Below, piece by piece: positions 1,890-28,111 of a stretch of 49,146 nucleotides of DNA. The translations under genes and the position numbers were made by a program. Source of the DNA: a virus. The stretch covers positions 1-49,146 of the IMG/VR virus record IMGVR_UViG_3300028886_000011. One strand, written 5' to 3'. How positions within the stretch are numbered: position 1 is the first letter of the stretch; every line of letters starts with the position of its first letter. The notes under the pieces were generated by a model, which saw only the letters and a program-made list of their open reading frames with translations, ran no database searches and was not told the DNA's origin.

Positions 1890-2927
1890 TTATTCACCAA
1901 ACTTTCTCGCTTGAAAATGTTTTACTTCCGCATTTCCAAAATCAAAATCTATCTCTGAGCCGTACAAAATAACTTGCTTCGGCTGTAACCTTGTCATAGC
2001 CTCTTTCATTCCGTCAACCCATATTTCTTTCGCCTTTTTATCTCGCATTACTCCGACAGTTGACACAGCCACCGTTCCGCCCTGTTCCAGACCATCAAAG
2101 CAAAATTGATATGTTTCTTTTTCAGCCCATGATAGTGTTGGAATAACTTTAATCCCTGCGTCTTGACACATCTGCCCGATAAGTCTTGACCTGTAAGCAT
2201 TCCATATCTTCATAGCCATAGGCATATCCATATAAAGCGACCAATCGGGAGTAAAAACACACTGAAACTTTTTCAAGCGTTCTATGATAAGTTGAGGGCT
2301 GTTCCATATTCTTTCAAATTGGTAATCGTCAATAAAGAAATGTACGCCTACATTTGTTTCCTTTGCGGTCTTGACATAGTTAAAACCAATCAAATTTTCG
2401 GGAATATAATTGCACTTCTTGAGAATAGGCATATTGTAAAAGCCTTGCGTTCTGCTTTCATCATATTCATTGAGATTTACGGAATTATATGTCTTTTCTC
2501 GTTCGTCACCGTAGTAGCCGTCATCATCTTCGTTTTCAAAATCGGGTACAGATATATCCAAATCAAAACCAAGGTCACCCATATCAATATCGGTTATGCC
2601 GTCAAGTTCCAAATCCAATAAATCCATGTCCCACGTTGCAAGCTCACTGACTTTGTTATCTGCAAGTCTGAACGCTTGAATTTGCTGTTCTGTCAAATCG
2701 TCTGCAATAATGCACGGTACTTCTTTCATACCGATTTTCTTTGCAGCTTTCAGGCGTGTATGACCTGCAACAATGGTTTTATCCTTGTCGATGACAATCG
2801 GCACCTTGAAACCAAATTCACGGATAGAGTTTGCTACATAATCAACTGCATCGTCGTTGTGACGAGGGTTATTTGCATACGGTATTAACTCGCTTGTTTT
2901 GATGTACTCAACTTTCAATTCCGACAT
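1890..2927 (-). CDS. ParB-like N-terminal (nuclease/CTPase-fold) domain fused to DUF4417
   Basis: ParB motifs: PYANNPRHNDDAVDYVANSIREFGFKVPIVID, VAGHTRLKAAKK. The C-terminal half (VHFFIDDYQFERIWNSP...FTPDWSLYMDMP...KVIPTLSW) matches the DUF4417 pattern. ATG 2927 follows GAGGTG. Confidence 0.7.
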   Translation of the reverse strand: MSELKVEYIKTSELIPYANNPRHNDDAVDYVANSIREFGFKVPIVIDKDKTIVAGHTRLKAAKKIGMKEVPCIIADDLTEQQIQAFRLADNKVSELATWDMDLLDLELDGITDIDMGDLGFDLDISVPDFENEDDDGYYGDEREKTYNSVNLNEYDESRTQGFYNMPILKKCNYIPENLIGFNYVKTAKETNVGVHFFIDDYQFERIWNSPQLIIERLKKFQCVFTPDWSLYMDMPMAMKIWNAYRSRLIGQMCQDAGIKVIPTLSWAEKETYQFCFDGLEQGGTVAVSTVGVMRDKKAKEIWVDGMKEAMTRLQPKQVILYGSEIDFDFGNAEVKHFQARKFGE

Positions 2928-2939
2928 ATCGCACCTCAA

Positions 2940-13440: not shown

Positions 13441-14392
13441 CATTTATACCAACGATTTACCATTTGTGTTGGATTAGACTATCTCTTCATCTCACAAGAT
13501 GCCGTGCGCTTGGAGTGGTAACTCATCTTCCACTCTACACAGTTACATTCATCACTGTTAGTCGTTACACTACAAGTATCGGTAATGCTTTCCCTTGCAA
13601 GTCTTATATTTACCTTTCAAGTGTCCGCATAACGTAGACAGTCCGTATTTTTCGTTTGCGTCTTTTATAGACTTAAATACTTCGCCTGTCTCAATACAAA
13701 TGACTGGTTTATTACGATAACTATTATCTCTGTGTCGGTCTTTAAGCTTTGCACATCTCTTTTTTATCGTTTCTTGGCTTTGCTTTTTTCCAAGATTTGC
13801 GTTTCTGAGCTTTTCCCTTGTTTCCTCAGAAACACTATGTCCTACCTGCGGCCCTTTAAGATTGTTCTTTATAATCTGAGCTTTTTCTTCTTCTGTTTTG
13901 GAGTCCCATTGTTTTTTCCCGGCTTCTCTCAATTTTTCCTTTGTTTCCTCGCTAAAAGATATTCCGGTAATTCCACGTCCCCCACGCGTCCTGTTATATT
14001 CGGGCTTTAATTTTTCTATCCAAAAAATTTCCCGTTCGTCTAACAGAGACTTGTCACATTCTTCCAAGACTTCAAAAGAGAAATTATCATATCCGTACTT
14101 ATTATACGCACGTTTAAGGCTTTGGTTGGATTCGCTGCAAATATATTTGTGTTCTTTTTTTCTGCGTTGTATATCTACGCTTTGACCGATATATTTTTTT
14201 CCATTTACAAGATTTTTTATTAAGTAAATGCCAGTCATAATGTATCACCTCAAATACATTATAGCACGGTGTTGCCCTTATGTCAATTCTTTTTAGGATA
14301 TAGAGGCTGTGGAGGGTTTCCACCGTTAGCACATAAAACTGTACACCCCTGAGTAATAGGGTTCACACGGTTTTACTTGACCCATTAGGTTA
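13441..14392 (-). mobile_element. Group I intron (952 nt) carrying a GIY-YIG homing endonuclease
   Basis: P1 pairing: CUUGGCU (14399-14393) with GGUCAAG (14382-14376), giving a U.G wobble at the 5' splice site. Terminal G at 13441. Splicing restores GYKG and the reading frame. The endonuclease ORF is internal. Confidence 0.75.
13570..14238 (-). CDS. GIY-YIG homing endonuclease with NUMOD3 repeats (I-TevI-like)
   Basis: GIYLIKN...KYIGQS...R...EH...N, then SEETKEKLR and SEETREKLRNANLGKK repeats. Own RBS: GAGGTGA. Confidence 0.85.
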   Translation of the reverse strand: MTGIYLIKNLVNGKKYIGQSVDIQRRKKEHKYICSESNQSLKRAYNKYGYDNFSFEVLEECDKSLLDEREIFWIEKLKPEYNRTRGGRGITGISFSEETKEKLREAGKKQWDSKTEEEKAQIIKNNLKGPQVGHSVSEETREKLRNANLGKKQSQETIKKRCAKLKDRHRDNSYRNKPVICIETGEVFKSIKDANEKYGLSTLCGHLKGKYKTCKGKHYRYL

Positions 14393-17461: not shown

Positions 17462-17520
17462 TACAGCTGTAAGAACAAATGAAAATCAACAGCCCACAGG
17501 GCAGAAAGAGAGAGATTAAG

Positions 17521-18264
17521 ATGAAAGAATTTAAATTTTATTCAGACGGATTTGAACTTCCCGTAAGCGTATGCAAAACACAAAAAGAAGCAGTCTATGA
17601 AATCACATCTGCAAGAGAAGCATTGAAACTTTTAGACAAAGAGGGTGAATGCGAAGGCGGTTGTGAAAAACTGATAATAGACGTTATTTACAAAGATGGA
17701 AGCACATATTACAATTCAAACAATTATGCAGAGGAAGGCAAGTTCAAAAGAACAGGTATTGCAAGAGCAATAGTATCCACCGAGTACGGAACGGTTGTTT
17801 TTGGTGATTTTGCTATAACGGAATACGGAGATGTAACCATAGAAGAAAGCGAAATCGAAGAGTACGGCGTATATGCAGGACAGTATGACGTAAAAGAGCA
17901 GGACGAGCAGGAAGTACAGGAAGTATCTGAAACAGAGACCAACGAAACAACGGCTGAAACGACAGCCGAGCAGGAAACAGTTGAGGGTATTTCCAAAATG
18001 GAAATACCCACAGAAACGGGCAACAGCGGATTTGAGTATACGAGAAGTCAGGCACAGGAAATCATTGTGGCAGGTACAAGCATAGCAAGAGAAAAGTATA
18101 GAGAAAAGCACGGTATATACAGTCCTATGGATTTGAAGAAGTTCAGCAGGAAACAGCTTGACGATTACTTATCAAAGGAACTTGATTACATTAACAAATT
18201 TTTGAACGATACCTTGCCAAAAGAAGTATTTAACGCCATGAAAGGAGAGACAATGTATGCTTAA
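17521..18264 (+). CDS. Acidic hypothetical protein (247 aa)
   Basis: ATG 17521 follows the conserved leader GGCAGAAAGAGAGAGATTAAG. The central E/T/Q-rich acidic tract is EQDEQEVQEVSETETNETTAETTAEQET. Confidence 0.65.
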   Translation: MKEFKFYSDGFELPVSVCKTQKEAVYEITSAREALKLLDKEGECEGGCEKLIIDVIYKDGSTYYNSNNYAEEGKFKRTGIARAIVSTEYGTVVFGDFAITEYGDVTIEESEIEEYGVYAGQYDVKEQDEQEVQEVSETETNETTAETTAEQETVEGISKMEIPTETGNSGFEYTRSQAQEIIVAGTSIAREKYREKHGIYSPMDLKKFSRKQLDDYLSKELDYINKFLNDTLPKEVFNAMKGETMYA

Positions 18265-18748
18265 AGTAAACACCATACACAGCTTGTCTTATAACACTGC
18301 TGAGCGTGAAAAATTCTGCGATTTGATAGATTTCTTTGAAAAAGAAATACAAGCCCTTGAAAGCAAAGATGACGAGATGTTTGAACAGTTAAACAACGAA
18401 GACTATGACGTTTGGGAACAGCAGTATGAGCAGGAACGTGACAAACTTTACGACAAACGTCGTAACGCATGGATAAACGCATTCGCAGCACAATTCCCGA
18501 ACAAAAAGAATGAATGGTTCGCTAATGTAATCAAGAAGTTTATTGATGAGGGTAAAGCAAATGGTGAAGCTTTTCACATATCAGCGAAGCAGTATGATTG
18601 CTTTTTGAAATACTGCTGTCACGAAGATGACAACAAAGAAGCATGGAAGTGTTACAAAACATATTGCCGTTGTTGCGGTTGTTTGATAACGCTTAAACGC
18701 CCAAGGCATGGCGGATATTACATGGAAATAACAATATTGACAGCATAA
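18257..18748 (+). CDS. Hypothetical protein with a Cys-rich C-terminus
   Basis: 163-aa ORF overlapping the upstream stop by 8 nt. Contains CYKTYCRCCGC. Confidence 0.6.
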   Translation: MLKVNTIHSLSYNTAEREKFCDLIDFFEKEIQALESKDDEMFEQLNNEDYDVWEQQYEQERDKLYDKRRNAWINAFAAQFPNKKNEWFANVIKKFIDEGKANGEAFHISAKQYDCFLKYCCHEDDNKEAWKCYKTYCRCCGCLITLKRPRHGGYYMEITILTA

Positions 18749-18817
18749 TAACAAGCTGACCTATCGGCTATACGGGCAATTTTTTATAAAAGACGGAAAG
18801 GAGAAAACGGTTTTGTT

Positions 18818-19246
18818 ATGAAGAAAGTAATAAGAGGACGTGTATATGACACGACCAAAGCAAAAAAGATTTACGAAACCGATAACGGATTAGGTCATAA
18901 TGACCTGTACTATATCAGCGAAACGCTGTATTGTAAAAAGACGGGAGAATATTTTTTGCATGGTGACGGCGGAGCAGGAACGGGATACGCCAAACACTGC
19001 GGAACAACCAGTGTTGGAGCGGAAGATATAGTACCACTGACATACAACGAAGCTAAACAGTGGGCAGAGGAACACATGAACGGTGATGAATACACAAAAG
19101 AGTTTGGTGACCCCGAAGCAGATTACACGAACAAAGTGATGACTATCAGCATAAGACAGAAAGCCATAGACAAAGTAAAGAGAGAAGCCCAAAAAAGAGA
19201 TATGAGCGTGAGCAAGTTAATAGAAGATTTGATAGAAAGCATTTAA
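18818..19246 (+). CDS. Hypothetical protein with a C-terminal ribbon-helix-helix-like domain
   Basis: The C-terminus VMTISIRQKAIDKVKREAQKRDMSVSKLIEDLIESI has a beta-strand/helix/helix (RHH) pattern. Last gene of its operon. Confidence 0.55.
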   Translation: MKKVIRGRVYDTTKAKKIYETDNGLGHNDLYYISETLYCKKTGEYFLHGDGGAGTGYAKHCGTTSVGAEDIVPLTYNEAKQWAEEHMNGDEYTKEFGDPEADYTNKVMTISIRQKAIDKVKREAQKRDMSVSKLIEDLIESI

Positions 19247-19250
19247 AAAA

Positions 19251-19280
19251 AATCCCCCGATTGTAACAAATCGGGGGATT
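19251..19280. terminator. Bidirectional intrinsic terminator between convergent genes
   Basis: 11-bp stem AATCCCCCGAT / ATCGGGGGATT, flanked by an A8 run on the left (a T run for the minus-strand transcript). Confidence 0.75.
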
Positions 19281-19282
19281 GA

Positions 19283-19489
19283 TTATTTGACCTGTTCTTC
19301 CGTTGCTCCGTGTTCTTCACGTTCGAGCAACCAATTTACAAATGCGTTCAACTTCATTCCACGATTTTCGGCAAGTTTCATATAGTCGCCTTTTTTGCCT
19401 TTCGGGAACATAACCGAGAATCTGTCGTATTTTTGCCTGTTAAAATCATTCCTGTACTGTGTCCCGTGTTCTTTTTCCCAGTCCGACAT
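19283..19489 (-). CDS. Ribbon-helix-helix (Arc/CopG-like) protein
   Basis: YDRFSVMFPKGKKGDYMKLAENRGMKLNAFVNWLLE has an RHH pattern. GGTGAT RBS. Confidence 0.55.
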   Translation of the reverse strand: MSDWEKEHGTQYRNDFNRQKYDRFSVMFPKGKKGDYMKLAENRGMKLNAFVNWLLEREEHGATEEQVK

Positions 19490-19512
19490 AATATCACCAC
19501 GCTTTCATAGAG

Positions 19513-19541
19513 ATTTTAGCATTTTTTCAATTATTACTCAA
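19513..19541 (-). promoter_or_regulatory. Promoter for the RHH gene
   Basis: Minus strand: TTGAGT, 17-nt spacer, TGCTAAAAT. The -35 overlaps repeat AATTATTACT (19529-19538). Confidence 0.45.
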
Positions 19542-19599
19542 TAATCAAAATGCACAATTTTGTTGATTGGACTTTGTTTATTATTTTTTTAAAAAACTA

Positions 19600-19628
19600 T
19601 TGAATTATTACTAAATAAGTGGTATGAT
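19600..19628 (+). promoter_or_regulatory. Promoter with extended -10 for 19687-20839
   Basis: TTGAAT, 17-nt spacer, TGGTATGAT. A second copy of AATTATTACT (19603-19612) lies in the -35/spacer. Confidence 0.5.
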
Positions 19629-19686
19629 AGTATCGACAAATAAATAAACAATTTGACAGCCGAAAGGCAGAAAGAGAGCGATTAAG

Positions 19687-20295
19687 ATGACAAAAAAGAT
19701 GTATAAAGCATTTGTAAAAAGCAAAGAAACAGGAGAACTCACAATCATAGAGAGTGAATACACAAGCAAAAAAGATTTTGCACGTGATTTGAGAGCAAAC
19801 GGATACGCAGTAAAGTTTATATCAACTCCCGAAAAGTTTGATGAAGACAGCGAAAATTACAATTGGGAACTCAAAAGACGTAAGAATGTCAGAGAAGCGA
19901 TGAAACAACACAAAGCAAGCAAAGAGCAGGCAGAAAGAGAGACGATTGATATGAAAACACAGGTAATTAACAACAATTCGGCAGAAATTCAGGTAGCAGT
20001 AGAAAATTGGTACATGAACGGGAAGCCATCTTCATCATATTTCACGATGAACGGAGAGAAGTACGCAGTGTTACCACGTTATGGCACCAGTAACGAATTC
20101 GATGCGTTTAAAGTCAAGACGTTTACGATTGGCGAAGGCACATATCATTATCCGTATTATGACCCCGAAACCCGTGAGCCGATTGACAGAATTGCAGTTG
20201 TAACAATCCCCGATGAGCTTGTTATCAAGAAAAAAGAGCAAATCGATGAAGCAAATCACGGTAATACATTATTCAAGGAATTTTTTAAGGTCTAA
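19687..20295 (+). CDS. Hypothetical protein (202 aa)
   Basis: ATG follows the same conserved leader (GGCAGAAAGAGAGCGATTAAG) as 17521. Confidence 0.65.
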   Translation: MTKKMYKAFVKSKETGELTIIESEYTSKKDFARDLRANGYAVKFISTPEKFDEDSENYNWELKRRKNVREAMKQHKASKEQAERETIDMKTQVINNNSAEIQVAVENWYMNGKPSSSYFTMNGEKYAVLPRYGTSNEFDAFKVKTFTIGEGTYHYPYYDPETREPIDRIAVVTIPDELVIKKKEQIDEANHGNTLFKEFFKV

Positions 20296-20383
20296 CGCTG
20301 ACGGCAGGGCGAATGCCCTGTAAAGCTGCACCGACATATCCGAAGCAGTCGGGAGCTAATAAAATATGAAAGAGGTTATCACT

Positions 20384-20839
20384 ATGAAAACAATGGTAAA
20401 AAATGACAGATGGAACGGTATCGAAACAGTAACAGTATGGTTTGATGATGATATGTCAACATACGAAATAATTGACAAAGAAAACGGCGAAACAATCGGG
20501 ATGATTTATGACGGAGAATTTTTAGACGAAGAAGGACAGGTTGATTATGATAAGCTGTACGAAACAATAGAGCTTGAAATAGTATTTCACATCAAAGCAA
20601 AAATAGAAACCCCCGACGAAGTTGAGATAGAAGAATATGACGAAGACGATGAAACGCCCGTAAATAAAAGACAGTATGATGTGTATTATACAGACGGCGT
20701 AAACGAAACATATACAACTCTTGACGCTGAAACGGCAGAAGAAGCACTTGAAGCAGAACAGATAGAAGTCTATGGTTGGAATCAAGAAGCAGGATATAAA
20801 AAATACAAAATAACAAAAGTTCATTACGCAATAGTATAA
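20384..20839 (+). CDS. Strongly acidic hypothetical protein
   Basis: ATG 20384 follows AAAGAGG. D/E-rich throughout (DEVEIEEYDEDDETP...). Confidence 0.6.
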   Translation: MKTMVKNDRWNGIETVTVWFDDDMSTYEIIDKENGETIGMIYDGEFLDEEGQVDYDKLYETIELEIVFHIKAKIETPDEVEIEEYDEDDETPVNKRQYDVYYTDGVNETYTTLDAETAEEALEAEQIEVYGWNQEAGYKKYKITKVHYAIV

Positions 20840-20892: not shown

Positions 20893-20932
20893 ATCCTCCA
20901 TTTCCGATAAGTTCGGGAATGGAGGATTTTTT
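20893..20932. terminator. Bidirectional intrinsic terminator
   Basis: 13-bp stem ATCCTCCATTTCC / GGGAATGGAGGAT (one G.U pair), T6 on the right, A-rich run on the left. Confidence 0.8.
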
Positions 20933-21287
20933 ATATCTCGTTTAGTTTACGCATTACATCATTGTACAATTTTACGTTAAAAAGCGAAACGGCAGACATC
21001 AGCTCGTCCATTACTGCCCAAATTTTGACGGCTGATTTACCGTCGATCAACTTTGAGAACTCGCTGTCAGATTGATAGTTGACAGTTGTTTCGCTATTGT
21101 CGGGCGGTGCATAGCTGTAAGTGGGTGTTTCCTTTTTGGAAACACCCACCGAGTTTTTCTCGGCAGTTGCTTGTAAATTGTTCAAAATGGTGTAATATGC
21201 TGCTAATTTGATACATGTATTTGCGTTTGGGTTGCGTTGTCCTTGACATTCGGCAATAGCCTCTATCAAATCATTTTCTGTTATCAA
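20931..21287 (-). CDS. Hypothetical protein
   Basis: 118-aa ORF, last gene of the post-lysis operon. Confidence 0.55.
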   Translation of the reverse strand: MITENDLIEAIAECQGQRNPNANTCIKLAAYYTILNNLQATAEKNSVGVSKKETPTYSYAPPDNSETTVNYQSDSEFSKLIDGKSAVKIWAVMDELMSAVSLFNVKLYNDVMRKLNEI

Positions 21288-21300
21288 GGACGTTTCCCCC

Positions 21301-21711
21301 TTACATCTGTTCCATTTTGTTTATAAGCTTGCGTATTTCCTGTTTTGTCTGCTCGTTAGGTGCGTCATTCATGACCTCATGCAACCTGCTGATAATTTCG
21401 TCATTTGCTTCATCACGGCTGTATCTGCCCATACTATCACGTCTGACATTGCCGTATCTCGCATAACTGTTACCACCCTCACGAGTATATCTTCTTGCAT
21501 AGCTGTTACTGTTCATATTGCCGTCATAGCTGCCACGGTTAGAATATCCGTCTTCACTATATTCATTCATAGCCATGATTGTTTCAAGGCTTTTAATAGC
21601 GTGTGTCAGCTTGTCAACAGTATCAAGACTGCCTGCTGTGAGTTCGCCTTTTTTAGCAATGTTTTCAAGTTCTTCACAAAGCATTTCTTTGATTTTTTCG
21701 TATGATTTCAT
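21301..21711 (-). CDS. Hypothetical protein with an R/S/Y/G-rich low-complexity centre
   Basis: Helical ends flank SNRGSYDGNMNSNSYARRYTREGGNSYARYGNVRRDSMGRYSRD. Confidence 0.55.
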   Translation of the reverse strand: MKSYEKIKEMLCEELENIAKKGELTAGSLDTVDKLTHAIKSLETIMAMNEYSEDGYSNRGSYDGNMNSNSYARRYTREGGNSYARYGNVRRDSMGRYSRDEANDEIISRLHEVMNDAPNEQTKQEIRKLINKMEQM

Positions 21712-21725
21712 TTTTTATTCACCTC

Positions 21726-22178
21726 TCACGCTATGCGGTTGATAACCAAATTAGCATTTTGCACATTTATCACGGGTGCAGGTGTGACAATCGGGTCTGA
21801 TGTAGCAGGTACGCTCTCGACTGAAAGTGAGAAACAACAACCTCTCGGCACTTTGATAATTGCCGTTGATGTTACATTGCCGTACTCGTCAACTGCTGCA
21901 GGTGTGATAATCGCTCTGCTTGTCAATCTCGGTTCGCCATTGATAGTAATCGCAACAGCTATTGAGCCAACTGTACCGCCTGTCGGAATTGCAATGTTAC
22001 TGTTAAAAGTTACCCGGTATGTTGCAAAACACTGATTTGTTATGCCACGCAAAATAAAAATTCCGTCGCCATTGTTGTGTACAACATAGCCTTTTTTACA
22101 CGGTATAGAATTATTGAAATTTACAGGACTGTTTAAATAGACAGTCTGGATTTCGTTATATACATATTCTGCTGCCAT
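21726..22178 (-). CDS. BclA-C-terminal / C1q-TNF-like jelly-roll protein (putative)
   Basis: Pattern YRVTFNSNIAIP...IAVAITINGEP...STAIIKVP...SLSVES...VQNANLVINRIA resembles exosporium BclA C-terminal domains. Recognised by eye only. Confidence 0.4.
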   Translation of the reverse strand: MAAEYVYNEIQTVYLNSPVNFNNSIPCKKGYVVHNNGDGIFILRGITNQCFATYRVTFNSNIAIPTGGTVGSIAVAITINGEPRLTSRAIITPAAVDEYGNVTSTAIIKVPRGCCFSLSVESVPATSDPIVTPAPVINVQNANLVINRIA

Positions 22179-22190
22179 ATCGTCACCGCC

Positions 22191-23168
22191 TTATGCGCCG
22201 CAACCACAACCGCAACCGTTATTTTGGCAAGTAAAAATCGGAGTATTGCCATATACTGGCATAGAGGGAACGGGGCAATTTTTGAGCCTGTTATAAACTC
22301 CGTCAATTTCTGCCGCTTGACCTGCCAAAATCTGAGCCGTCTGAGCCGTCTGTGAAGCTTGCATATTTGCCATATTGACGGCATTCTGCAAAGCAACATT
22401 TTCTCTTTGAGCCTGTGCAAGCTGATTTTTAACACCATCAAGTTCCAAAGCACAAAGTTTGTCGAGGATAGCCTGTGTGTTTGCGGTATTCGCTGCTCTT
22501 GTAGCACAAGCCTCTGTTGCGATAGTGTATTTAACATCGTTTGTAGCAGCTCTATTGTCGCAGCAGCACTGGGCAAGCTGAGCGGAGAGATTTGTCAAGC
22601 CCTGTGTGTTAGCTGTCTGAGCGGCAAAAGAACGCTCCAAATCGCTTATCTGATTAGTGTACATCTGCTGTGCAATAGCGTTCTGTGCATTGTTTACGCC
22701 CTGGTTTACACTGTTAAAGCCGTTGCAAAGACTGTTTTGAATAGCTGCCGTTCCGTTTGCGATACCGAGATTTGTGCTTGCAAAACCGTTAGCCAATGAC
22801 ATCTGAGTATCACCGAAACCACCGCAAATCTGAGTTGACAGTCCTGCTATACCGTCACGAACGGAAGTGATATTGTCGTTAATCATAGCGTCACGGAAAC
22901 CACCGTTTGTGTTGGAATTGATGTTCTGTTGACCGTTCAGAAGCCACGGGAACTCATAACCCATGCCGTACATACCGCCCATCATTGCACCGCCACCGAA
23001 GCCGCCAAAGCCGCCCCAGCCACCATTGAGCAAGGCTATCAAGAAAAGTATGCCAAGCCAACTATCGCCAGTGCCGCCAAAAAGTCCGCCACCATTGCCA
23101 TATCCACCGTTATAAAGTGGCTGAACAGGCATAACAAGTCCATTGCTGCTTTCATCTGTAATTGCCAT
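22191..23168 (-). CDS. Gly-rich, one-TM, N/Q/A-rich coiled protein with a Cys-rich C-terminus
   Basis: ATG 23168 follows AAGGAGAA. N-terminus: GGYGNGGGLFGGTGDSWLGILFLIALLNGGWGGFGGFGGG. Centre: N/Q/A-rich with a CCC triplet. C-terminus: CQNNGCGCGCGA. Confidence 0.6.
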   Translation of the reverse strand: MAITDESSNGLVMPVQPLYNGGYGNGGGLFGGTGDSWLGILFLIALLNGGWGGFGGFGGGAMMGGMYGMGYEFPWLLNGQQNINSNTNGGFRDAMINDNITSVRDGIAGLSTQICGGFGDTQMSLANGFASTNLGIANGTAAIQNSLCNGFNSVNQGVNNAQNAIAQQMYTNQISDLERSFAAQTANTQGLTNLSAQLAQCCCDNRAATNDVKYTIATEACATRAANTANTQAILDKLCALELDGVKNQLAQAQRENVALQNAVNMANMQASQTAQTAQILAGQAAEIDGVYNRLKNCPVPSMPVYGNTPIFTCQNNGCGCGCGA

Positions 23169-23230
23169 TTCATTTTTCTCCTTGTAAAAAAAATTATATT
23201 TTAAAGCCCCGTGCACTGAGCTTTAAGTGC

Positions 23231-23473
23231 TTATCTTATGTTTCCGAGCATATTATTAAATTGGGGTAACATCTGTTTTGCTTGATTTACCTGCTGTTGG
23301 GTGATTTGCCCCGAGTTTAACAAATGTTGTACTATGTCCTGCGGATTGTTCGTGCCGTTTGGAATGTTAAATTTTTGCTGTATCATGAATTGTAACGGAT
23401 TGCCCTTGAACTGGTTGAACATTTGCATGATGTTCATTTGCTGTCCGTGCTGCGGTATAATCGGATTTGCCAT
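23231..23473 (-). CDS. Small Q/N-rich protein
   Basis: ATG 23473 follows GGAGGT. Sequence begins MANPIIPQHGQQMNIMQMFNQFKGNPLQFMIQQ... Confidence 0.55.
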   Translation of the reverse strand: MANPIIPQHGQQMNIMQMFNQFKGNPLQFMIQQKFNIPNGTNNPQDIVQHLLNSGQITQQQVNQAKQMLPQFNNMLGNIR

Positions 23474-23945
23474 TTATATTTACCTCCATGTTTTCAAAAT
23501 CATTCAGCCTTTTCTTCAATGCTTCTATTTCGTTCCACAATGTCACTATATCGTCTTTTTTTGCATATTCGACATTAAGTTGTTGCTGTGGGTTCTCATT
23601 GCTTGTAACGGTGTTTTGTACTCGTATATCTTCTTCCTTGACAAGGCGGTATTTCTCAAACTTTGGTCTGTCAAGCTGTGAAAATCCCATTGTCTTTGTG
23701 TAACAATAAGGAGCATTTTCATCAATGAATGTTACACTATTGCCAAGTGCAACAGGATAATTTCTCGCTTCGTTTTCATCACGAACCGACACAAAACCAC
23801 CGTTCTGTATTTGTTGGGGCTGTTGTTGCATATTGCTTTGATAATTATTCATCTGCTGTGGTATTTGCTGAAAGTTTTGATATTGATATTGTTGCGGATA
23901 TTGATACGGCTGATATGTTGCAGGATAAAAATTATTGTATGCCAT
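23367..23945 (-). CDS. Protein with a Q/N/Y-rich (prion-like) N-terminus
   Basis: 32 of the first 50 residues are Q, N or Y (MAYNNFYPATYQPYQYPQQYQYQNFQQIPQQ...). The 3' end overlaps the next gene by 107 nt. Confidence 0.55.
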   Translation of the reverse strand: MAYNNFYPATYQPYQYPQQYQYQNFQQIPQQMNNYQSNMQQQPQQIQNGGFVSVRDENEARNYPVALGNSVTFIDENAPYCYTKTMGFSQLDRPKFEKYRLVKEEDIRVQNTVTSNENPQQQLNVEYAKKDDIVTLWNEIEALKKRLNDFENMEVNINGKSDYTAARTANEHHANVQPVQGQSVTIHDTAKI

Positions 23946-24318
23946 TGTTTACCTCCCAATAATAAATTGGTACTCTGTTACCGCTATCCCACGTGTCAAC
24001 GTAATTGCCGTCTATCACTGCGACAACGTGTTGACCGACAAACACTAAATACCGCCCTTTTGGGTGGTCATCTGCAAATTGCTTGACTGTATAACAATTC
24101 GGACAAGTATCGGGGACAATGTGCCTTGTCAGACCCTTGCTTTTAAGATACTCATTCCACACGCTGTCACTTGACGGCATATCAGACATCATAAAACCTT
24201 GTATTGCTAATCCGATATATGTTGTTTCCCAGTCTTGATTGAGTACAGTTGATATTGCTCTTATAACACAATCTCCGACTTGCTTTTGCTGTGGATTTGC
24301 GTTGTAGTTTACATACAT
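23932..24318 (-). CDS. Putative papain-fold cysteine peptidase (Cys...His...Asp)
   Basis: VGDCVIRAIS near the N-terminus and GQHVVAVIDGNYVDTWDSG near the C-terminus. ATG 24318 follows AGGTGA. Confidence 0.4.
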   Translation of the reverse strand: MYVNYNANPQQKQVGDCVIRAISTVLNQDWETTYIGLAIQGFMMSDMPSSDSVWNEYLKSKGLTRHIVPDTCPNCYTVKQFADDHPKGRYLVFVGQHVVAVIDGNYVDTWDSGNRVPIYYWEVNNGIQ

Positions 24319-24335
24319 TTGTATCACCTGATTTT

Positions 24336-24364
24336 AGTATAAACAAAAAACAAGGCATTGACAA
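24336..24364 (-). promoter_or_regulatory. Promoter of the post-lysis operon
   Basis: Minus strand: TTGTCA (24364-24359), 17-nt spacer, TATACT (24341-24336), then AGGTGA and ATG. Confidence 0.45.
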
Positions 24365-24386
24365 TCAAACCAATACCTTGTTTTTT
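24345..24386 (-). terminator. Stem-loop with T run after the sigma-r4 gene
   Basis: AAAAAACAAGG, 20-nt loop, CCTTGTTTTTT. The loop is large for an intrinsic terminator. Confidence 0.4.
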
Positions 24387-24401
24387 ACTATCTTTTTACT
24401 A

Positions 24402-24617
24402 CTACTCAAAATGCCTAAAAATTTTGTCCTGTTCTTTGTAAACTATTGCGGTTATCCGCTGAAAGCTCAGTCCGAATTTTTCAGCCAAATCGCTGTATGT
24501 CATTCCGTCAATAAACCGTAATTTTAAAATCTCTCTGTTTCGTACAGCGTTTCTGCCCCGTATCCATTCATCAATCAATCTTGACAATTCGGAATTTGAA
24601 ACATCTTCAATCCTCAT
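24402..24617 (-). CDS. Sigma-70 region-4-like HTH protein
   Basis: REILKLRFIDGMTYSDLAEKFGLSFQRITAIVYKEQDKI. Confidence 0.6.
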   Translation of the reverse strand: MRIEDVSNSELSRLIDEWIRGRNAVRNREILKLRFIDGMTYSDLAEKFGLSFQRITAIVYKEQDKIFRHFE

Positions 24618-24662: not shown

Positions 24663-25025
24663 TTAGTTCTTTTCTTCACTGTCAACCTCTGCCCCATAGT
24701 AACCAACTCCATTACTGTCACCAATGATATTTACCCCCGTGCCGTCTTGCGTATATTCGTAATCCTCAAAATCATATTGATTTATGTACAATAACCACGA
24801 CACATTACACAACACGATTGATATTATTGCAATTATCAATGCAATCCACAATTTTTTGATGTGTCTTTCCATTCTTGCCATTGTAGCTTCGTACACGATA
24901 AACGGAATTTTTGTTGGGTTTTCAACATGATTTTTTGAATTTTTAACTGTTTCAACATTTTCAACATAGTTTTCAACACCATATGTTGAAGTTGTTGAAA
25001 AGTCTTTTGTGCTTTGATGTTTCAT
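24663..25025 (-). CDS. Single-pass membrane protein with VEN repeats
   Basis: TM segment LWIALIIAIISIVLCNVSWLLYI. N-terminus: VENYVENVETVKNSKNHVEN. Confidence 0.55.
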   Translation of the reverse strand: MKHQSTKDFSTTSTYGVENYVENVETVKNSKNHVENPTKIPFIVYEATMARMERHIKKLWIALIIAIISIVLCNVSWLLYINQYDFEDYEYTQDGTGVNIIGDSNGVGYYGAEVDSEEKN

Positions 25026-26426: not shown

Positions 26427-27854
26427 TTATGAATAACCTATATTTTTGAAGTCATTTGGATGATGGCGAATAATCCAGTCAACATATTTGCTTATTGTCT
26501 GTGCTGTTCTTACATATCCAAGTACGTTTTCATGAAATCCGTTAAAATAGGTGTTCTGGAAATCATCATCATAAGCAACGTCATAATTGTAAAGATCAAG
26601 ATAGTAACAAGACGGGAAATAATTAGCCATATCTTCAATAGCATCTCTGAAATCACGAAATCTTCGTCCCCATACGGTCATTTTGTTGTGATTTGGCAAA
26701 CCGACAAGAAAAATCTTCGCATCAGGTCGAAGACTCAGAATCAACTTTATAATTCTGGAGTAATTGCCATAAAAAGAAGTGCTTGCAGAGTCTTCTATGT
26801 CTGCACTGGTGCCAACAGATATGTTTGTATCTGCAATATCATTTACACCTAATGCAATAAAATATGCATCACACAGATAGTTGCTTCCATTTTCACGAAG
26901 GTTCCGGACGTTTTGATTTGATGTACTCCAGAAAGTATTAGCTTTCAATCCGCCCACAGAGAAATTATAGGCAGTATTGCCGCACATTTTTGCTATATAC
27001 TGTATCCATGAATACTCGTAATGATCAGTACCGATAACATTATTGTTAGCATCTCTTGACTCCAGACAGCCACTTGAAAGACTGTCACCGATTACACCGA
27101 TTTTTTTGAAAACAGAACATAATCCCCCGATGATAGAAGTATCTCGCAACGGCACATCATCATTCTCCAGATAGTTTTTTATCATTCCGTCAAGCTCATC
27201 TTCAGGAAGAAATTGATTTGTCAGTTCTGCCACTGGTTGCATTAACCAATCCTTGTTGATGTGTTTGCCGAAGGGAACATATTCTAATGTTTGGTATTGT
27301 GGAACATTGTCATAGTCAATGACAGCCATAGGATACAGTACAGATACAGGGAATACTAATCTTATATATTTTACATTATCATCAGCAATACCCCATGTAT
27401 ACAAATCATCCTCATTATAATTCCAAATTCTGATAAAGGTTTTGTTGCTGTCATACTGAGCAAGTTTAACATATCCGCTTATGTTTTTGGTAATGTAAGC
27501 AGGTACATTGTCTACTGCAATATAATCAGTTCTGACATACTCAGAGTAAGTTGTTTCCTCACCTGCATTAGATATGCTTCCTGTTTCGCACGTTTCGAGA
27601 TTGATTATATTGTTGCTGATGTTAAAAACATTCTGAATAATATTATCTATTTTTCCGAATTGTTTTCTGACAGCCTTGCCTGCGGTGGTATAAGTCACTC
27701 CATCTGCACCTGTGCGAATATCAACAAGCTCGGTGTTGCCCTCTGTATCGTTGTTGTGGGCGATAATATTATCCACTCTCGCCCCCAACGCTCGTATGTC
27801 TGCACGGGCTTTTTTGTCCGCTCTCCTATTTGTAATATCGAAAAAATCACTCAT
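26427..27854 (-). CDS. Tail fibre-like protein with a C-terminal SGNH/GDSL esterase domain
   Basis: N-terminus: ELVDIRTGADGVTYTTAGKAVRKQ (Firmicutes phage fibre motif). C-terminus: GVIGDSLSSG ... GVNDI. ATG 27854 has an ATGA overlap after GGAGTGGG. Confidence 0.7.
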   Translation of the reverse strand: MSDFFDITNRRADKKARADIRALGARVDNIIAHNNDTEGNTELVDIRTGADGVTYTTAGKAVRKQFGKIDNIIQNVFNISNNIINLETCETGSISNAGEETTYSEYVRTDYIAVDNVPAYITKNISGYVKLAQYDSNKTFIRIWNYNEDDLYTWGIADDNVKYIRLVFPVSVLYPMAVIDYDNVPQYQTLEYVPFGKHINKDWLMQPVAELTNQFLPEDELDGMIKNYLENDDVPLRDTSIIGGLCSVFKKIGVIGDSLSSGCLESRDANNNVIGTDHYEYSWIQYIAKMCGNTAYNFSVGGLKANTFWSTSNQNVRNLRENGSNYLCDAYFIALGVNDIADTNISVGTSADIEDSASTSFYGNYSRIIKLILSLRPDAKIFLVGLPNHNKMTVWGRRFRDFRDAIEDMANYFPSCYYLDLYNYDVAYDDDFQNTYFNGFHENVLGYVRTAQTISKYVDWIIRHHPNDFKNIGYS

Positions 27855-28111
27855 ATATCCCACTCCGTCCATGTATCAAGGGTACTGTTATAGACAAATG
27901 CCCTTTGCGTGTCGTCCACGATAGCAACATCGCCCGACTGAAAATAAAATTCCGCTCCGTATGTAGCGATATTTGCCCTTGTCAAAACGCTGTTCAGCTT
28001 ATCCACATCAGCACCGACTAAATGCAGATGTTCTTTGTAACGGTCAAATGCGATACTTCCAACGTCTGGAACGTTGTTTTCGTTAAAATTCATGTTCAAA
28101 ATGTTTATCAT
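27851..28111 (-). CDS. Hypothetical tail-associated protein
   Basis: ATG 28111 follows GAGGTGA. Confidence 0.5.
   Translation of the reverse strand: MINILNMNFNENNVPDVGSIAFDRYKEHLHLVGADVDKLNSVLTRANIATYGAEFYFQSGDVAIVDDTQRAFVYNSTLDTWTEWDI

Follow-up and report, generated by a model that had tools for sequence, protein, structure and literature searches.

In the Bacillus cereus-group exosporium, the proteins ExsF/BxpB and BclA form a pair in which a free-standing trimer resembling tumour necrosis factor (TNF) holds a fibrous protein by its N-terminal peptide, in the manner of a clamp (PMC12357932, PMC10470788). Knobs of the C1q/TNF type also occur on viral fibres, namely the central spike of phi812 (pdb 9eul), the short tail fibre of cyanophage A-1(L) (8ke9) and collagen-like C1q proteins of giant viruses. 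This article examines seven genes, here called g1 to g7, in a stretch of viral DNA of 49,146 nucleotides (nt) (IMG/VR record IMGVR_UViG_3300028886_000011, positions 1 to 49,146; "the window" is this whole stretch). One of the seven products is predicted to have a fold of this kind. The genes form a real operon, conserved in order across many phages of rumen and gut Clostridia. An earlier note on the same DNA had singled them out as a self-contained operon behind the lysis genes, with products resembling spore-surface, exosporium or condensate-forming proteins.

The reading preferred here, tentatively and at less than even chance, is that of a late set under the control of a protein with a sigma region 4 (sigma-r4), made in the cytoplasm and assembling by itself: it would consist of a coiled-coil stalk (g4), a TNF-like trimer (g5) and helpers.

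A conserved module behind the endolysin gene

The seven open reading frames (ORFs) are tightly packed between 20931 and 24318, all on the minus strand, and are enclosed by a hairpin-embedded promoter and a bidirectional terminator. The ORF coordinates agree with the positions and the strand first given for them. Relatives were collected via g5, for which 267 are confirmed in IMG/VR; 80 loci were retained and, together with that of phage Ceridwen, make up a set of 81 in which the genes were sought by tblastn. Many of these loci, picked via g5 as they are, end early at contig ends. Matches were obtained for g5 in all 81, for g4 in 79, g6 in 74, g1 in 64, g3 in 54 and g7 in 47. Two genes that precede g1 also recur, those for a sigma-r4 protein (sig4; 42 loci) and for a small membrane protein (TM120; 33 loci), whereas the window's own lysin and holin are matched in 3 and 2 loci. 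The count for g2 (33) is too low because this protein is of low complexity; a gene-sized gap is always present at its position.

Gene order is constant across the 81 viral loci. It recurs in 18 contigs of rumen and gut Clostridia genomes, in Dulem virus 33 and in a prophage carried by Vescimonas fastidiosa MM35, which is in culture, and the complete module is present in the isolated Butyrivibrio phage Ceridwen. The spacings from g4 to g7 are operon-like (12–14 nt). The genes thus co-occur in relatives, their order being kept in 81 viral and 18 genome loci. The earlier note had also named what would speak against it, namely detection of the products as ordinary virion decoration or fibre components, well-known families in structure searches, and a gene set that is not conserved in relatives; none of these was encountered. 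Its description of the operon as self-contained holds for the syntenic unit and falls short in extent, since sig4 and TM120 also belong to it. TM120 (24663–25025, minus strand), a bitopic membrane protein of 120 amino acids (aa), starts 3 nt past the endolysin stop, and its relatives adjoin sig4 in 33 of the 81 loci.

TM120, sig4, the hairpin-embedded promoter, g1–g7 and the terminator make up, with high confidence, an accessory module of about 4.1 kb that travels as one piece between siphophages infecting Clostridia of the rumen and gut. Equally firm is its location: the endolysin gene precedes it, and an integrase or early genes come after it. The gene before TM120/sig4 encodes an endolysin in nine of ten sampled loci, and these endolysins belong to five unrelated families (GH25, glucosaminidase, ELLD, CHAP and amidase_2). 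Next downstream come integrases, of the tyrosine or serine type and in reverse orientation, or else genes for replication; six sampled loci have an integrase there. Variants of this arrangement exist. In locus L062 the lysin is placed after the module, and in L040 TM120 and sig4 are inverted and lie downstream of g7, still adjacent. Ceridwen has no integrase, and in Vescimonas the module is found at the prophage end, beside host genes. In L103, a lysin 65 % identical to that of the window is directly followed by an integrase and the module is absent; the module is therefore regarded as accessory and dispensable. Extra genes occur in some loci between sig4 and g1, g1 and g2, g3 and g4, g4 and g5, or g5 and g6; they are sporadic and uninformative. 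In Dulem virus 33, an endonuclease gene is inserted between g3 and g4.

A megablast search of the region against phage genomes gave no match, and the sole find of a plasmid search was the Vescimonas prophage. At the protein level the picture is one of abundance: g4 and g5 each have thousands of clusters at 90 % identity in rumen and gut metagenomes and no informative product name, which places the module among the more abundant unexplained gene sets in phages of fibre-degrading Clostridia. It is available in Ceridwen on Butyrivibrio fibrisolvens DSM 3071 and in the lysogen Vescimonas fastidiosa MM35. All module genes are labelled hypothetical in the description of Ceridwen (PMC7372960).

In layout, the module resembles a moron, that is, a lysogenic-conversion or exclusion cassette expressed from the prophage and altering the lysogen, for example by a superinfection block exerted by a membrane-anchored g4 complex. 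It comes with a promoter of its own and is flanked by terminators, occupies the classic lysin–integrase junction, is dispensable, and in Vescimonas lies next to host genes at the prophage end. However, an export signal is lacking in six of the seven products, PADLOC yields no match, and the complete module occurs in a phage without integrase that has been observed in the lytic cycle only (PMC7372960). The module is moreover co-located with sig4 (linked in 42 of the 81 loci), which is read as co-transcribed with the late genes. A moron is, on this evidence, rather unlikely.

The jelly-roll protein g5

The gene g5 (21726–22178, minus strand; 150 aa) is the best conserved of the module, with a median identity of 71 % as compared to 38–48 % for the others. 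Independent protein searches agree: identity at rank 120 is 77 % for g5 and 62 % for g4. Three cysteines (C27, C114 and C115) are invariant. An AlphaFold2 (AF2) model (predicted local distance difference test, pLDDT, 76; predicted template modelling score, pTM, 0.71) was compared with the PDB by Foldseek. The best match is the C-terminal domain (CTD) of F-BclA (9h38; E 1.8e-7, template modelling (TM) score 0.67–0.72), and BxpB (8d02) and ExsFA (7r1m) are also matched; TM scores for this group as a whole are 0.65–0.72. The model also matches TNF, EDA, C1q chains, the phi812 spike knob and cyanophage fibre domains, the structural matches overall having E-values from 1e-7 to 1e-4 and TM scores of 0.54–0.72. 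The BFVD search ranks highest a group of free-standing proteins, about 135 aa long and encoded by uncultured phages; collagen-C1q proteins come next. The protein is thus predicted to have the C1q/BclA/ExsF jelly-roll fold, as had been proposed from its sequence. The sequence profiles for this fold do not recognise it: nothing was found at E ≤ 0.1 in Pfam, with BclA_C, C1q and TNF included, nor did a profile search of PDB sequences give a significant match.

The head extends throughout the 150 aa of g5; a collagen-like or other N-terminal stalk is absent. A profile search of 1.84 billion representatives returned 593 clusters at 50 % identity, and as the best 150 of these are 68–196 aa long, none of the 150 joins the domain to a stalk. 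In being a free-standing TNF-like protein, g5 conforms to the size of ExsFA/BxpB (about 150–170 aa). The usual knob of viral fibres has the same fold, so that the statement that the products do not resemble normal virion genes was too strong.

In a spore-surface role, which was the lead of the earlier note, a lysogen that sporulates would produce these proteins in its mother cell and incorporate them into the coat or exosporium. The top structural matches of g5 (F-BclA-CTD, BxpB and ExsFA) point in this direction, many candidate hosts belong to spore-forming families, and exosporium proteins likewise have no signal peptides and a high content of Cys, Gln and Gly (PMC10470788, PMC12357932). Against this, the fold is common in viral fibres, collagen repeats are absent, the regulator is tied to the late lytic transcript, and none of g1–g7 matches BclA_C, the exosporium-leader model TIGR03720 or any other spore-family profile in Pfam and NCBIfam. 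Butyrivibrio fibrisolvens does not form spores. A complete module in a phage of this species makes a spore role unlikely, and, all points taken together, that reading fits poorly and is highly improbable.

The stalk candidate g4

The gene g4 (22191–23168, minus strand) ends 12 nt before g5 and encodes 325 aa, counted from MAITDESS. This start is the local form of a conserved N-terminal motif (consensus MALTDEN..MVMPV.P). It is followed by a Gly-rich hydrophobic segment (residues ~28–70) and then by an N/Q/A-rich helical body. Conserved cysteines comprise a CCC triplet, C239, C298, C314 and the CGCGCG end (CGCGCGA in the window); the triplet and this ending are present as first reported. The label "Cys-rich" is apt for these conserved clusters and not by percentage, g4 having 3.7 % Cys against a window mean of 2.3 %. 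A transmembrane segment had likewise been proposed: the hydrophobic stretch is real, but as a membrane span it is borderline, since hydropathy peaks at 1.67 and flanking Lys or Arg residues are absent.

When relatives are aligned, the body shows insertions and deletions whose lengths are exactly 7 and 11 residues. No clean hydrophobic period, heptad or hendecad, was obtained; only these indels back a coiled coil. At least 7999 clusters of g4 relatives exist at 90 % identity, none with a Pfam domain or an informative name, and g4 itself has no significant match in Pfam or in a profile search of the PDB. The best PDB profile match, at residues ~99–188, is non-significant (E 0.14) and falls on a spike protein (9r1q), in its HR1-like heptad region. 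Together with the Gly-rich hydrophobic segment upstream, this stretch loosely resembles a class I fusion protein.

A membrane-active g4, with a fusion-peptide-like Gly-rich segment and a long coiled coil, might act with TM120 to complete or time envelope disruption, with the remaining products as cofactors. Such an accessory to lysis or egress would suit the architecture of g4 and its spike-like stretch, as well as the attachment of the unit to endolysins of five unrelated families and the start of TM120 directly behind the lysin. Monoderm Clostridia have no outer membrane, however, and would thus offer none to fuse. L103 manages without the module although its lysin is related, the lysin of L062 comes after the module, and little time would be left for the action of an operon that is under separate control and made later than the lysis genes. 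With the spike similarity being non-significant, this role is considered quite unlikely. A spanin-type partner was looked for as well: no product bearing a lipobox is seen in the translations, and the hosts are Clostridia, not diderm.

The putative cysteine enzyme g1

The first gene, g1 (23932–24318, minus strand), encodes a soluble protein of 128 aa. Its ATG follows AGGTGA; the program that listed the ORFs opens it at a GTG three codons upstream of this chosen start. Residues D16, C17, H97 and D108 are invariant down to 25 % identity and are kept in distant relatives from phages, namely Geobacillus GBK2, Bacillus Tsamsa (gp15) and Pseudomonas PAK_P2 (gp042). In the AF2 model (pLDDT 92), C17 opens a helix (17–25) and H97 precedes a strand (98–102). 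Foldseek ranks Josephin-2 first (E 0.08, probability 0.72, TM score 0.46), then ataxin-3 and PaToxP. Profiles from Pfam, NCBIfam and PDB sequences give no match. From the model and the conserved residues, g1 is probably a papain-fold cysteine hydrolase or transferase; of the papain-like character first ascribed to it, the Cys-His-Asp arrangement is conserved and the fold match is weak.

The family (phrog_3754) has a life of its own, with relatives in 151 phage records that mostly lack the rest of the module; it is found alone in phages of Bacillus, Geobacillus, Prevotella and Pseudomonas. A CPxC motif at residues 72–75, in a strand-loop-helix setting, recalls the active site of thioredoxin-type proteins. 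It is nearly invariant in the lineage of Clostridia phages, absent from the Bacillus and Geobacillus relatives, and reduced to CP in PAK_P2. A zinc or redox role via CPxC was set aside because the distant relatives lose this motif yet keep the Cys-His-Asp arrangement.

Low-complexity proteins and annotation searches

Of the remaining four genes, all on the minus strand, g2, g6 and g7 combine conserved segments with stretches of low complexity. The product of g2 (23367–23945; 192 aa) has a Q/N/Y-rich N-terminus (32 of its first 50 residues are Q, N or Y), a small conserved domain and a C-terminal coiled-coil-like helix. Its gene overlaps g3 (23231–23473; 80 aa) by 107 nt (23367–23473), and the overlapping tail of g2 is not conserved. 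The products of g6 (21301–21711; 136 aa) and g7 (20931–21287; 118 aa) have conserved helical ends and a variable middle, which in g6 is rich in R, S, Y, G and N. Both the length of the overlap and these compositions are as originally described. With Q/N shares of 24.5 % (g2), 37.5 % (g3) and 19.7 % (g4), three products are the top ORFs of the window, for which the mean is 9.9 (standard deviation 3.7; 71 ORFs).

In g2, g6 and g7, the folded or helical ends are conserved around low-complexity stretches that vary freely. A motif ARGRG.NARRDSMGRYS is conserved in g6, and the ends of g7 read MITE.DL.EAIAEC...C.KLAA.YTI and MDELM...NPRLY..VMRKL; the conserved MITE.DL supports the TTG start of this gene. 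That g6 and g7 might be paralogues was rejected (hhalign probability 0.4 %).

Searches of the usual resources are uninformative for all seven. Nothing above noise was found in Pfam, NCBIfam or PADLOC; the best PADLOC match (E 0.014) falls on the low-complexity g4 and is not meaningful as anti-phage defence. Profile searches of PDB sequences with g1, g2, g4, g5, g6 and g7 gave nothing significant. Six of the seven match PHROGs, among them phrog_21718 (g2), phrog_22984 (g3) and phrog_28802 (g6), and every one is of "unknown function". No description of the operon was found in the literature on phage-encoded BclA, ExsF or C1q modules. The earlier statement that no described family or system fits is thus upheld, no product matching Pfam, NCBIfam, PADLOC or PDB sequences.

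Judged from the translations, signal-peptide-like N-termini are absent from g1, g2, g3, g5, g6 and g7. Products without export signals, two of them (g2 and g3) extremely rich in Q, N and Y, together with the Gly-rich segment of g4 and the disordered R/S/Y middle of g6, could form an intracellular low-complexity matrix, a condensate or an amyloid-like assembly, which might organise late infection or be released as extracellular glue. This is difficult to reconcile with the pattern of conservation: the parts that are kept are folded or helical, length and sequence of the low-complexity stretches are free to change, and the best conserved member, g5, is a predicted compact β-sandwich. Such a matrix is accordingly held to be improbable.

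Regulation of the operon

The gene sig4 (24402–24617, minus strand) follows the lysin and TM120 without a visible break. It encodes 71 aa with nothing but a helix-turn-helix of the sigma-70 region 4 type: Sigma70_r4 of Pfam is matched with 29 bits (cut-off 24.1), and a fragment of SigF region 4 (8jzt) with E 2.7e-4. Region 2 of sigma-70, which is responsible for binding the −10 element and core enzyme, is not matched in Pfam or NCBIfam.

Between sig4 and g1, several elements are superimposed on the minus strand. Direct repeats, TAGTAAAAA-GA-TAGTAAAAA (24382–24401), with phased A-tracts, are a candidate operator or UP-like element. A hairpin followed by a T run (24346–24385) is terminator-like for the late transcript; it folds with −17.5 kcal/mol (z −6.2). 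The best promoter-like site of the region, TTGTCA-17-TATACT (24336–24364), is present as first read and has 10 of 12 matches. By sequence reading, its −35 hexamer falls within the hairpin, whose loop and 3′ arm together cover the −35 and the spacer. Within 150 nt upstream of g1, a hairpin with a T run is found in at least 33 of 76 loci, as compared to 15 of 375 control windows; the sequences of the stems vary among loci.

A conserved sigma-70 −35 box was rejected as a common feature, being shared only by the nearest relatives of the window. The window promoter can also be read as TTGATT-N21-TATACT, the local form of a family motif TTCATT-N21-TAnAAT. A pattern T[CT]AT[TC]-N21 followed by a −10-like element occurs in 25 of 73 distinct upstream regions, where about 1.2 are expected, with a sharp peak at a spacing of 21; the TTCATT of this motif sits in the hairpin loop.

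The unit of the direct repeats varies among loci and tracks the recognition helix of sig4. GCACG repeats occur in 14 of 21 loci with an S-V-R-Q-type (VRQ) helix and in 0 of 27 others, GATACG repeats pair with the helices VIQI or VAQV, and AGTAAAA with FQRI or VQHT. This co-variation is suggestive only, because related loci inherit both features by descent. Together with the linkage retained by the inverted pair in L040, it indicates that sig4 is likely to be a dedicated regulator of the operon. In seven loci (L019, L020, L022, L035, L077, L094 and L095), an acidic ORF of ~25–32 codons (M[ED]SYDND..L[LM]MLDDDLFP...) lies between the hairpin and g1; no such short acidic ORF is present between promoter and g1 in the window.

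At the other end, a bidirectional terminator hairpin (20893–20927) closes both the operon and the convergent plus-strand genes. Its folding energy is −20.7 kcal/mol (z −5.6) for one strand and −26.6 kcal/mol (z −7.0) for the other. A T run follows on the plus strand, and only a short one (UAAUUUUUC) on the minus strand. A hairpin with a T run is found 3′ of g7 in 26 of 48 loci. Both stem-loops that had been reported, upstream and downstream, thus fold well. The regulatory design, with a protein of region 4 only, co-varying repeats and a promoter inside a terminator hairpin, provides an experimental handle.

Proposed mode of action

The tentatively preferred late, self-assembling set can be formulated as follows. 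As the last gene of the late transcript, sig4 would supply a stand-alone sigma-region-4 helix-turn-helix that binds the direct repeats before g1 and thereby turns on the promoter whose −35 lies inside the terminator hairpin of that transcript. The operon would then be a separate, very late lytic unit, and this timing is the simplest reading of the arrangement. All products except g4 being without an export signal, they would be made and assembled in the cytoplasm. There, g4 may form an elongated coiled-coil stalk, probably trimeric, with a hydrophobic Gly-rich N-terminus and C-terminal Cys clusters, and g5, translated 12 nt after g4, may form a trimer of the TNF/C1q type. This trimer could either be the knob of the g4 stalk or, like ExsF/BxpB, a free-standing clamp that grips a peptide of its fibrous partner. 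The Q/N-rich g2 and g3, and g6 and g7 with their helical ends and disordered middle, would be partners or assembly helpers, and g1 a Cys-His-Asp enzyme that processes or cross-links them. The end product might be a dispensable fibre or coat-like appendage, placed on the particle or at the dying cell's membrane. We infer in this way that trimers form and that a stalk meets a knob or a clamp, as well as when the operon is active and where its products assemble.

Several points speak against this scheme. On the side of regulation, exact 6-mer direct repeats are only weakly enriched (23 of 76 regions, 69 of 375 controls), the co-variation of helix and repeat is not phylogenetically independent, and the promoter in the window matches sigma-70 well, so that it might fire in the absence of sig4, in the lysogen included, a point that also favours a moron. 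On the side of structure, the hydrophobicity of g4 has no clean period (peaks at 5.8, 3.65 and 4.35 residues), and the fold match of g1 is weak. The dispensable operon is not part of the tail gene block, the conservation of g5 far exceeds what is usual for a receptor-binding knob, and placement of the products in virions or at the membrane is a matter of inference.

Should the appendage or coat be real, it could influence adhesion, stability or host range of phages in the rumen and gut. A structure that is not part of the virion is also conceivable, if doubtful: an exosporium-like coat, a fibre lattice or a membrane-active, class-I-fusion-like fibre in or on infected, non-sporulating Clostridia, switched by sig4. 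If true, this would be a phage-encoded system for remodelling cells without a described counterpart.

Other features of the window

Convergent with the operon, five plus-strand ORFs (17479–20839; 261, 163, 142, 202 and 157 aa) break the otherwise minus-strand genome. They have no PHROG match, DUF7424 remains below threshold, and the site is that at which the nearest relative, L002, has its integrase. On the other side, directly before the holin, the minus strand encodes a tail-fibre-like protein of 481 aa (26427–27872) with a GDSLSSG (GDSL-like) motif in its C-terminal half. In L062, a 740-aa protein encoded just upstream of TM120 matches Lipase_GDSL; it has no tblastn match to the 481-aa protein. 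This suggests a virion-borne esterase.

Within the replication module, a homing-endonuclease-like gene is found on the minus strand at 13570–14238 (phrog_314, E 2.9e-38; GIY-YIG/HNH families). The early region contains a gene for a ParB_N + DUF4417 protein (1890–2939, minus strand; E 1.4e-73), and near it are genes for a DnaA/IstB-like ATPase, a RusA resolvase fused to a MerR helix-turn-helix, and a Lin1244-type protein.

Comparison with known systems

Four groups of described systems come close to parts of the module. For g1, these are enzymes with a papain fold (Josephin deubiquitinases, C39 leader peptidases and transglutaminases), with which it has in common the order, placement and conservation of Cys17, His97 and Asp108, Josephin-2 being its top structural match. 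Unlike them, g1 reaches no family profile and its match is non-significant; with 128 aa it is also shorter than the matched Josephin chains (152 and 182 residues).

For the layout, the loci UviA-UviB-bcn of pIP404 and TcdR-TcdE-toxins of the C. difficile PaLoc are presumably similar: we take both to have a sigma-related regulator and a small membrane protein by a lysis function, with cargo that is free of export signals. The differences concern all parts. In contrast to a full group-5 sigma factor, sig4 has region 4 only; TM120 matches no holin family, and no family at all in Pfam or PHROG; and the cargo shows no toxin or bacteriocin domain.

The closest comparisons concern g5 and g4. With viral C1q/TNF-knob fibres, the module shares the knob fold, and as in cassettes of a fibre and its chaperone, the coiled-coil-like g4 lies directly upstream of g5, with small genes after it. 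It differs in that g5 is never fused to a stalk and is unusually conserved rather than hypervariable, and in that the module is located outside the tail block, behind the lysis genes, as a dispensable transcription unit of its own. With ExsFA/BxpB and the CTD of BclA/F-BclA, g5 has in common the same predicted TNF/C1q jelly-roll, and with ExsF/BxpB its free-standing form and its size; its neighbours are rich in Cys, Gln and Gly, and signal peptides are absent in both sets. Unlike the exosporium set, g5 belongs to no sequence profile, the module has no collagen-like partner and no exosporium leader, and it is phage-encoded, placed behind a lysin and found in a phage of a non-sporulating host. 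That the module represents something categorically new is unlikely on present evidence. It fails defining features of the exosporium pair and of the viral fibres alike, while sharing its fold and free-standing form with the former and its viral setting with the latter.

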